The position numbers and the translations under genes are program-made. Under the pieces are notes generated by a model that ran no database searches, was not told the origin of the DNA, and saw nothing but the letters and a program-made list of their open reading frames with translations. Shown here one piece after another: positions 1 through 1,009 of a stretch of 1,009 nucleotides of DNA. Each line of letters starts with the position of its first letter. Within the stretch, counting starts at the first letter, position 1. Origin of the DNA: Naegleria gruberi (lineage: Eukaryota); assembly GCA_000004985.1 (NCBI GenBank), contig GG739620.1. One strand, 5' to 3'.

Positions 1-2
1 AG

Positions 3-92
3 GAAAAGGTTGCACTCAAAGAATTGGAAAAGTACAAACAAACCGAAAGTCCTCTTGTTTTCAAACATTACAGAAAGACTAAATCCAAGTAA
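3..92 (+). CDS. Possible 3' end of an unidentified protein-coding gene (start lies left of the window). Frame 3 reads EKVALKELEKYKQTESPLVFKHYRKTKSK followed by a TAA stop at 90-92.
   Basis: All three + frames are open over the first ~80 nt, so stop codons alone cannot choose a frame. Frame 3 gives a protein-like, charged C-terminal tail. It uses codons preferred in the rest of the window (gaa, aag, gtt, ttg, tac, caa, aga, tcc) and ends in TAA. No homology search was possible. Confidence 0.3.
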   Translation, partial: EKVALKELEKYKQTESPLVFKHYRKTKSK

Positions 93-202: not shown

Positions 203-274
203 GGGACCATGGTCTAGTGGTATGATTCTCGCTTTGGGTGCGAGAGGCCGTGGGTTCGATTCCCACTGGTCCCC
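203..274 (+). tRNA. tRNA-Pro with anticodon UGG, eukaryotic cytoplasmic type and intronless.
   Basis: I folded a 72-nt cloverleaf by hand. The acceptor stem is 203-209 GGGACCA paired perfectly with 267-273 TGGTCCC. U8 is at 210. The anticodon stem is 228-232 CTCGC paired with 240-244 GCGAG, and the loop is 233-239 TTTGGGT, so the anticodon is TGG at 235-237. The variable loop is 5 nt (245-249). The T arm is 250-254 GTGGG, TTCGATT, 262-266 CCCAC. The discriminator is C274, and CCA is not encoded (274 is followed by TTT). The A box TGGTCTAGTGG (210-220) and B box GGTTCGATTCC (252-262) match the RNA polymerase III internal promoter consensus. Body positions 8-48 (210-249) are the same as the yeast tRNA-Pro(UGG) exons as I remember them. 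Confidence 0.92.
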
Positions 275-444: not shown

Positions 445-450
445 TTTATT
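445..450 (-). promoter_or_regulatory. AATAAA polyadenylation-signal-like hexamer on the - strand, 25-30 nt downstream of the SDR stop codon.
   Basis: The + strand reads tttatt at 445-450, which is AATAAA on the - strand. It sits in the AT-rich 3' flank of the - strand gene, whose TAA stop is at 475-477. Hexamers like this are frequent in AT-rich DNA, so support is weak. Confidence 0.3.
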
Positions 451-474: not shown

Positions 475-733
475 TTACAAGAAAAATTCAGAATCCTTCT
501 TGATGAGGTTCTTACTAGATTCCCACAATTCAACTTGTTTTTCCACTTCGTAGGATTCGTCAGAGGAATTTTTCTTTTCCTTTCCATCATAATAAGATCC
601 AGAGATTATTCCAGTTTCGTTTGGATTCACCAATTTTGCTAAATCGCCACCAGAAACAGATAATTCTCTTCTCAAATCCTTTGCATGTTCAATCATTCCC
701 TTTTTTCTTTCAGGATCAATATTTCTTGTCAAA
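475..733 (-). CDS. Terminal exon of an SDR gene of the retinol-dehydrogenase / Env9 / WWOX-like subfamily: the C-terminal region plus the TAA stop. The ORF-track start at 732 is TTG, not ATG. I place the exon start at 733, after a TAG acceptor.
   Basis: Open frame 475-732 from the track. Position 733 completes a split AGT codon with the last two bases of the upstream exon. The tail SGSYYDGKEKKNSSDESYEVEKQVELWESSKNLI fits the conserved C-terminal pattern of RDH-type SDRs (G-x-Y-[FY]-x-D ... E-x-LW-E-x-S-x-x-L). I am recalling human RDH12 (...SGKYFSDCK...AERLWNVSCELLG) from memory. The family call depends mainly on the upstream exon. Confidence 0.65.
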
Positions 734-782
734 CTAATTATGGAAATAGTTGAATATTTATCTGAAACTATTCGATACTTAC
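734..782 (-). other. Predicted 49-nt spliceosomal intron on the - strand, phase 2.
   Basis: On the - strand the donor is caaG|GTAAGTat with GT at 782-781, a perfect match to the AG|GTAAGT consensus. The acceptor is taatTAG|t with AG at 735-734. Splicing joins frame A upstream to the ORF frame downstream with no frameshift, which had a 1-in-3 chance of happening by accident. The interval is about 24% GC against about 35% in the flanking coding sequence. Without splicing, the ORF frame reads low-complexity ...KYSTISIIS... and hits a stop at 819-817 with no ATG. The weakness is that there is no recognisable branch-point motif: no TACTAAC and no CTRAY. Confidence 0.5.
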
Positions 783-957
783 CTTGTTTCTGGAATAAAT
801 CCAGGATTGAAACAAGTTACACGGAATTGATTCTTGAATTCACTTGAATTTTGTAATCTTTTCCATAATTCATAAGTGAACAGAATATTCAAGAGTTTGG
901 AAGTTGGATATCTACTTCCAATTTCTTCTGGAGTTTCGTATGGTGGTGAATGAGTTT
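783..957 (-). CDS. Internal exon of the same SDR gene, encoding the catalytic YxxxK motif and the PG motif. Its 5' boundary is uncertain; the frame is closed by an in-frame TGA at 959-961.
   Basis: This - strand frame runs 58 codons without a stop in DNA that is about 67% A+T, which I estimate happens by chance about 1% of the time. It translates to ETHSPPYETPEEIGSRYPTSKLLNILFTYELWKRLQNSSEFKNQFRVTCFNPGFIPET. The catalytic Y-P-T-S-K fits YxxxK, and the following LLNILFTYELWKRL matches the SDR consensus Y-x-x-SK-LAN-x-LFT-x-EL-x-x-RL. RDH12 has [20 protein letters not shown] as I remember it. FRVTCFNPGFIPET matches the [IV]R[VC]-x-x-x-x-PG-x-[VI]-x-T motif. Codon use is yeast-like, with cca, aga, ttg and gaa preferred. 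There is no in-frame ATG inside the open stretch. Confidence 0.55.
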
Positions 958-1009
958 CTCAATGGATCATATTTTGCTTTTGGCATTGGATTTTCATTTT
1001 GATCTGTTT

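Follow-up and report, generated by a model that had tools for sequence, protein, structure and literature searches.

The minus strand of a 1009-bp unplaced nuclear contig of Naegleria gruberi, referred to here over its whole length as the window, very probably holds the final two exons of a classical SDR gene of this genome, a reading to which we assign a probability of about 93%. The gene would be the same as NAEGRDRAFT_75916, or an allelic or redundant copy of it. Several lines of evidence support the view that an 85-aa ORF on this strand forms the last exon of such a gene, which is spliced, and is no gene in its own right; the splicing is inferred from homology together with an existing gene model. 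The splice junction is already annotated in GenBank for this contig, so the finding is ordinary and already known. Its biological weight is very small, as this is a routine fragment of a eukaryotic gene from one of the commonest enzyme superfamilies.

In this arrangement, the penultimate exon (1003-783) encodes the helix with the active-site Tyr-x3-Lys, beta-6 and the enzyme's PG motif. A 49-nt phase-2 intron of the form GTAAGT...TAG (782-734) would be removed, joining the pre-mRNA at 783/733, and the last exon (733-475) supplies the substrate-lid helices, beta-7, the C-terminal helix and the stop codon TAA. The full protein, predicted at ∼316 aa, would carry the TGxxxGxG motif, an Arg for the 2'-phosphate of NADPH and the Asn-Ser-Tyr-Lys tetrad. 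Such a product may act as an NADP(H)-dependent oxidoreductase, of the carbonyl or enoyl reductase type, with a substrate pocket that would be built in part by the last exon. Both the 85-aa ORF, which starts with TTG, and a shorter 73-aa ORF, which starts with ATG, would then be artefacts that arise when a eukaryotic exon is read by bacterial ORF rules.

The features of the window are listed below. Two sequences serve as the main points of comparison: L001, a related metagenome contig (ENA ERZ929261, 1266 bp) that is 98% identical to the window, and the GenBank protein EFC36403.1 (P0152).

1-92, plus strand: 3' part of another gene, which converges on the SDR gene and encodes a C terminus ending ...EKVALKELEKYKQTESPLVFKHYRKTKSK and a stop (L001 941-1264, minus strand)
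203-274, plus strand: eukaryote-type tRNA-Pro(UGG), 72 nt, intron-less (Rfam, 62.4 bits)
445-450, minus strand: AATAAA hexamer, a possible poly(A) signal 25 nt past the stop codon
475-733, minus strand: last exon, coding part (the T that completes the split Ser codon, then 85 codons and the TAA at 477-475)
734-782, minus strand: predicted spliceosomal intron, 49 nt, GTAAGT...TTAG, phase 2 (from homology and GenBank model EFC35187.1)
783-1003, minus strand: penultimate exon, 221 nt here and 226 nt in L001 (from alignment to L001 and EFC36403.1)
783-958, minus strand: single-frame part of the penultimate exon, which the original prediction took as exon 1 (58 codons plus AG)
800-805, minus strand: Pro-Gly of the SDR 'PG' motif after beta-6, in NPGFIPET
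896-910, minus strand: catalytic Tyr-x-x-x-Lys, YPTSK (Tyr 908-910, Lys 896-898)
940-1003, minus strand: contig-end stretch with five one-base deletions (runs CC, TT, TT, TT and TTT, each shortened by one)
940-1009: contig end, apparently sequence of low quality
1004-1009, minus strand: 3' splice site of the upstream intron, AAACAG (its last 6 nt; AAACAG ends a 69-nt intron in L001)

Two reading frames joined by a predicted short intron

The 85-aa ORF occupies 475-732 on the minus strand. ATG first occurs in it at codon 13 (M13 of MTRNIDPERKKGM...), and its frame stays open upstream through 733-780 and further with no ATG, GTG or TTG. From 958 to 783 on the same strand a different frame is open, with a length of 58 codons plus 2 nt and the translation ...GSRYPTSKLLNILFTYELWKRLQ...FRVTCFNPGFIPET (in full, ETHSPPYETPEEIGSRYPTSKLLNILFTYELWKRLQNSSEFKNQFRVTCFNPGFIPET). 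Every statement that the original prediction made about the sequence holds, and the SDR motifs that it recognized in the second frame are present, with YPTSK and PG at the positions given above. The two frames are connected by the donor AAG/GTAAGT (G782/T781, with a slash here and below marking the junction) and the acceptor TTAG/ (A735/G734). A split codon AG/T then specifies Ser, and the joined product of 144 aa reads ...PETS/LTRNIDPE...FFL and stops. The G + C content of the intron is 24%, compared with 33–34% in the exons. The putative intron thus has the features of the U2 type, with GT...AG ends, a consensus donor and a removal that restores a frame colinear with intron-less homologues; the upstream intron of the same gene, as seen in L001, likewise begins GTAAGT.

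Enumeration of GT/AG pairs identified 33 that would connect both frames free of stops, so that the geometry of splice sites is not decisive by itself and the case rests on homology. The pair 782/734 is the sole one that has the GTAAGT consensus together with a gapless match to the PETSL(A/T)R of homologues. The most informative of these is P0154, a 313-aa N. gruberi paralog recorded as a 'predicted protein'. With E-values scaled to a database of 1e9 residues, the penultimate exon alone matches P0154 residues 174-226 (E=5.5e-18) and the last exon alone matches residues 228-313, the end of the protein (E=2e-16). The sole residue between these two matches, S227, corresponds to the split Ser codon, giving PETS/L in both proteins. 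Across the junction PETSLTR aligns on PETSLAR, and SSDESYEVEKQVELWESSKNLIKKDSEFFL on SSDESYEVSKQLELWEGSKNLIKTETDFIL; overall, the spliced product is 58% identical to P0154 and reaches its final residue (E=2e-51).

Wider searches gave the same picture. A phmmer search of the spliced 144-aa product against 1.8 billion representative proteins returned 267 matches at E<=1e-3, nearly all of them single stretches that run over the junction onto residues ∼180-310 of proteins of 300-350 aa, and these proteins carry Pfam adh_short. Among BLASTP alignments to the collected homologues, 260/264 cross the junction. The junction is also gapless in a multiple alignment and against P0154, P0153, P0004 and others. 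The fragment encoded in the window also aligns in one stretch with the NCBIfam profile NF004846, residues 17-136 onto 178-300 of 306 (E=3.6e-8, 33 bits). Furthermore, EFC35187.1, a partial GenBank model on this contig, has the same 782/734 junction. The proposal of a last exon of a spliced SDR gene is therefore borne out by the phmmer matches, by the paralog at 58% identity and by the GenBank model.

Comparison with L001 provides evidence of constraint on the coding sequence. Outside the contig end, the coding sequences differ by 3 substitutions in 416 nt and no indels; two of the substitutions are synonymous (CTG/CTT, TCT/TCA), and the third replaces Asn with Asp. The 49-nt intron is 100% identical in the window and L001, so it offers no contrast in divergence between exon and intron. 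The AATAAA hexamer lies in an AT-rich region and is absent from L001 at the aligned position, which makes it weak evidence for a poly(A) signal.

These observations bear on whether the intron is removed at all. If it were normally retained, the real product would be a 231-aa protein ending ...PETR, which would leave the ORF downstream as untranslated 3' sequence. Retention of 782-734 gives an immediate stop, AGG TAA, in which AGG straddles the donor and TAA, next to it, starts one base inside the intron, and the GenBank model P0152 (EFC36403.1) does end in PETR. However, the ORF matches the final 86 residues of P0154 (2e-16), it aligns with the ends of dozens of SDRs, and it holds at least nine family-conserved positions. 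The last exon has one synonymous base change in 259 nt compared with L001, while the 200 nt past the stop codon have diverged heavily (25 mismatches and 34 gap columns). The intron is spliced out in EFC35187.1, the second GenBank model for this sequence, and a protein ending at PETR would, on the structural model described below, be without the lid, beta-7 and the C-terminal helix. We consider the likelihood of normal retention to be very slim.

A second alternative is a stand-alone small gene, bacterial or organellar, that starts either at TTG (85 aa) or at ATG (73 aa). Prokaryotic gene callers do report the 73-aa ORF on a metagenome contig. The 73-aa ORF (475-696) and the 85-aa ORF both lie inside the last exon, and the homology of the ORF carries on upstream across the intron into another frame. 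The DNA is Naegleria nuclear, with a eukaryote-type tRNA-Pro adjoining, and an exact look-up found the 85-aa TTG ORF on record nowhere. A scan for bacterial promoters and terminators found 5 promoter-like sites, against 4.1±2.2 expected, and no terminators. The origin of the DNA and the homology across the junction rule out a small gene of this kind, and the last exon of a spliced gene is the reading followed below.

Frameshifts at the contig end and the true start of the exon

The open frame that contains the catalytic motifs is interrupted by TGA at 959-961, and 958 had been taken as the 5' limit of the exon. This limit proved misleading. The alignments indicate that the stop is created by frameshifts and is no exon boundary, and that the exon runs to 1003. 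Over the 64 nt from 940 to 1003, the alignment of the window with L001 contains 5 mismatches as well as 5 gap columns, compared with 0 gaps in the next 465 nt. The TGA arises because the five one-base deletions scatter the exon over three frames, and protein pieces are found in all three of them (..QNENPMPKAKYD, SIEKLI and SPPYE..). In L001 the 69-nt upstream intron reads GTAAGT...AAACAG, and its removal gives ...SSEVH/DPKLKIPMPKAKYD..., identical to EFC36403.1 (in a fuller reading, ...SSEVH/DPKLKIPMPKAKYDSIEKLISPPYE...). The window opens on this strand with AAACAG (1009-1004), the last six bases of that intron, so the exon starts at 1003.

The deletions themselves can be read in two ways. They might be real, in which case the contig would be a decayed duplicate of NAEGRDRAFT_75916, either a pseudogene fragment or a defective allele, from which no SDR is made despite an intron and a last exon of intact appearance. 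Such decay could account for the loss of five single bases and for several mismatches within 64 nt when the window is compared with L001 and P0152, and the existence of an unplaced 1-kb contig beside a 138-kb scaffold with the same protein sequence also fits a duplicate. The position of the deletions points the other way, as all of them are confined to the final 64 nt and each shortens a homopolymer run, a pattern typical of poor read ends; the other 465 nt of exon and intron are indel-free compared with L001. In addition, the 55 codons that follow the frameshifted stretch are identical to EFC36403.1. Sequencing error is favored over a pseudogene on these grounds, and a decayed duplicate is unlikely. 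The five deletions are thus probably low-quality sequence at the end of the contig.

Family placement of the protein

To place the protein in a family we used a composite of 316 aa, made from EFC36403.1 minus its terminal Arg (which is read into the intron) plus the last exon; its N-terminal two thirds come from outside the window. Judged by its sequence, the composite is a classical SDR of the retinol-dehydrogenase/WWOX/protochlorophyllide-reductase-like branch. It matches Pfam adh_short (PF00106) with 70.8 bits against a cut-off of 26.6, and the match covers residues 11-153, upstream of the window. The hallmarks of SDRs are all present, at positions that are invariant in an alignment of 62 sequences: T15, G16, G20, G22, R44, N99, N122, S152, Y189, K193 and P224, with R44 presumably the NADPH-type Arg. 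Those that make up TGxxxGxG, NAG and the catalytic Asn and Ser (T15, G16, G20, G22, N99, N122, S152) are all outside the window, in EFC36403.1. Within the window, the Y, S and K of YPTSK are invariant in alignments of 11 and 62 homologues, as is the P of the PG motif, the G of which is at least 90% conserved. At least nine positions in the last exon are conserved in the family, namely G276, Y278, S287, S288, S291, Y292, L300, W301 and S304 in composite numbering.

The fragment in the window behaves differently in some of these tests. Pfam assigned no family to the spliced 144 aa or to either exon, the sole weak match being Thioredox_DsbH (E=0.19), so the adh_short match that had been anticipated for the conceptual spliced translation did not appear. 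The fragment has no Pfam match because adh_short here aligns only to ∼138 of 195, upstream of Tyr-x3-Lys. The original prediction had counted a missing SDR hit for the 783-958 translation as evidence against itself, and this result, taken literally, would wrongly reject a correct idea. More generally, a Pfam test at the level of fragments may wrongly refute a correct SDR call, as adh_short stops short of the catalytic Tyr in this subfamily. A phmmer search of the fragment against PDB sequences gave matches at chance level only (phosphopantetheine adenylyltransferase, E=0.4), and a word-index protein search with the 144-aa product gave no match. The latter marks a limit of sensitivity, since 100%-identical entries exist in the same collection; the identical entries that it missed are sequences of 73 aa and 105 aa.

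Profiles that cover the whole fold place the composite more closely. The best profile is NF004846/PRK06197, which aligns end to end (7e-42); its score of 143.6 bits lies below the subfamily cut-off of 268, and we do not class the protein as PRK06197-type. The LPOR profile TIGR01289 also aligns end to end (1e-34), residues 9-308 onto 3-312 of 315. Among PDB sequences the top seven distinct ones are all LPORs (2e-26 to 3e-24), followed by 3rd5. An AlphaFold model was examined for the paralog P0154 and has a pLDDT of 91.3 and a pTM of 0.92. Its best structural match is the LPOR 7jk9 (TM 0.84, 2.5 Å, E=6e-23), compared with ∼1e-14 and TM ∼0.6 for generic SDRs. On this model the penultimate exon corresponds to the loop that leads up to the active-site Tyr, to the long helix alpha-5 with YxxxK (178-205) and to beta-6 (213-219), followed by the PG motif. 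The last exon corresponds to the post-beta-6 lid, formed of three helices (234-262), to beta-7 (275-277) and to the C-terminal helix (291-304).

Naegleria is non-photosynthetic. Identity as an LPOR was rejected on this account and because the composite scores 120.5 bits against an equivalog cut-off of 331.35; the protein is LPOR-like in fold. Identity as WWOX was also rejected, as the protein is without WW domains: the composite starts 14 residues before TGxxxGxG and has only SDR-type Pfam domains. Among named relatives, proteins labelled 'light-dependent protochlorophyllide reductase' by JGI are 39–42% identical to the composite, WWOX-like proteins 38% and RDH11/12/13-like proteins 36%. The animal WWOX-like and RDH11/12/13-like relatives, at 36–38% identity, have coverage of 71–97% and E-values of 1e-38 to 1e-45. 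The RDH/WWOX-type architecture proposed originally is thus upheld at the level of the clade, but the closest solved relatives are LPORs, not RDHs.

Relatives in Heterolobosea and beyond

The heterolobosean SDRs compared were P0154, N. gruberi NAEGRDRAFT_71650, N. lovaniensis C9374_003611, and Willaertia magna ABK040_002278 and ABK040_008570. P0154 is 58% identical over 99% of the composite, and the others are 40–42% identical to the composite or 39–45% over the fragment. They have in common with the composite their length class, an extended loop from Ser to Tyr, PETSL or PTTSL at the junction, and a C-terminal end of the form ...SSDESYEV.KQ.ELWE.SKNLIK....F.L. They are nevertheless separate genes, and the lid segment after the junction is ∼10 residues shorter in the composite. 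In the type represented by P0003 (349 aa, from an ENA contig) and NAEGRDRAFT_71650, a prokaryotic gene caller reports one uninterrupted ORF on a metagenome contig; since this type is uninterrupted at PTTS/L, the 49-nt intron is not common to all SDR paralogs of Naegleria.

LPORs (TIGR01289; PDB 7jk9, 6r48, 6l1g, 6l1h and 6rnv/6rnw) are the best solved relatives by sequence (2e-26) and by fold. They have TGxxxGxG, ACR, NHLGHFLL, YxxSK and an insertion between the catalytic Ser and Tyr in common with the composite, and a similar C-terminal helix (...S.ES.D...A..LWE.S..L). Identity is ∼28%, however, and the insertion between Ser and Tyr is shorter in the composite. RDH11-14, the SDR domain of WWOX and PRK06197-type proteins (PDB 3rd5) have the same architecture around YxxSKLxNxLFTxEL and the same C-terminal motif, SGKYF...S..S.D...LW, as the composite. 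The names RDH and WWOX were given to the matches by their sources, and retinoid substrates are not implied by them. Among the matches collected, the nearest relatives of the Naegleria and Willaertia paralogs outside Heterolobosea are mostly unnamed metagenomic and prokaryotic sequences.

Existing models of the gene

Two GenBank models describe this sequence. EFC35187.1/XP_002667931.1 ('predicted protein, partial [Naegleria gruberi]', 105 aa) is annotated on this 1009-base contig as complement(join(475..733,783..841)). It reads EFKNQFRVTCFNPGFIPETS/LTRNIDPE...FFL and is the spliced translation from EFKNQ... to FFL. EFC36403.1 (NAEGRDRAFT_75916), of 231 aa, lies on a 138-kb scaffold; it reads AGG-TAA across the donor (the equivalent of 780-785 in the window), unspliced there, and ends ...PETR. 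This model is probably without its last exon and 85 residues short, and should read about 316 aa. The G + C content of the window is 33.1%; for N. gruberi NEG-M the published values are a G + C content of 33% and 1.7 exons per gene (PMC8296547, Table 2).

When bacterial-style ORF tracks are run on eukaryotic DNA, exons end up as 'small hypothetical proteins', and metagenome protein collections already contain two such fragments of this gene, of 73 aa and 69 aa. The two best phmmer matches are short ORF calls of this prokaryotic style, 100% and 98% identical to the two exons, and both GenBank proteins were found in the clusters of these two matches.

Two wider readings go beyond the arrangement favored here, namely that the terminal 49-nt intron is a regulated retention switch and, separately, that the LPOR-like SDR paralogs of Naegleria and Willaertia are an old bacterial acquisition; we see a slim chance of this. 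If there were such a switch, the stop at AGG-TAA would give an SDR core of 231 aa that lacks the lid, beta-7 and the C-terminal helix, and both annotated forms (the EFC36403.1 type and the spliced one) would exist in vivo.

Neighboring features

The gene at the opposite end of the window is visible over 107 aa in L001. This part is highly charged, possibly coiled-coil, and no Pfam family was found for the 107 aa at E<0.1. The two convergent genes are 382 nt apart, and the tRNA-Pro(UGG) is located between them, ∼200 nt past the stop codon of the SDR gene, and is followed by a T-run (TTCCTTTT). It was the only feature found by Rfam; a match to 'Plastid-ycf2' on its antisense strand was dismissed, as its 24.5 bits are far below the threshold of 65.7 bits. 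The tRNA is identical in L001 at 72/72 positions, with indels in both flanks. The intergenic sequence at 93-202 and 275-474 differs from L001 by a 40-nt indel (∼112-151 in the window), by indels of 16 nt and 10 nt, and by ∼14% mismatches. Genes and tRNA are ∼99–100% identical and the intergenic sequence has diverged, which suggests that L001 comes from a different Naegleria strain or a close species.
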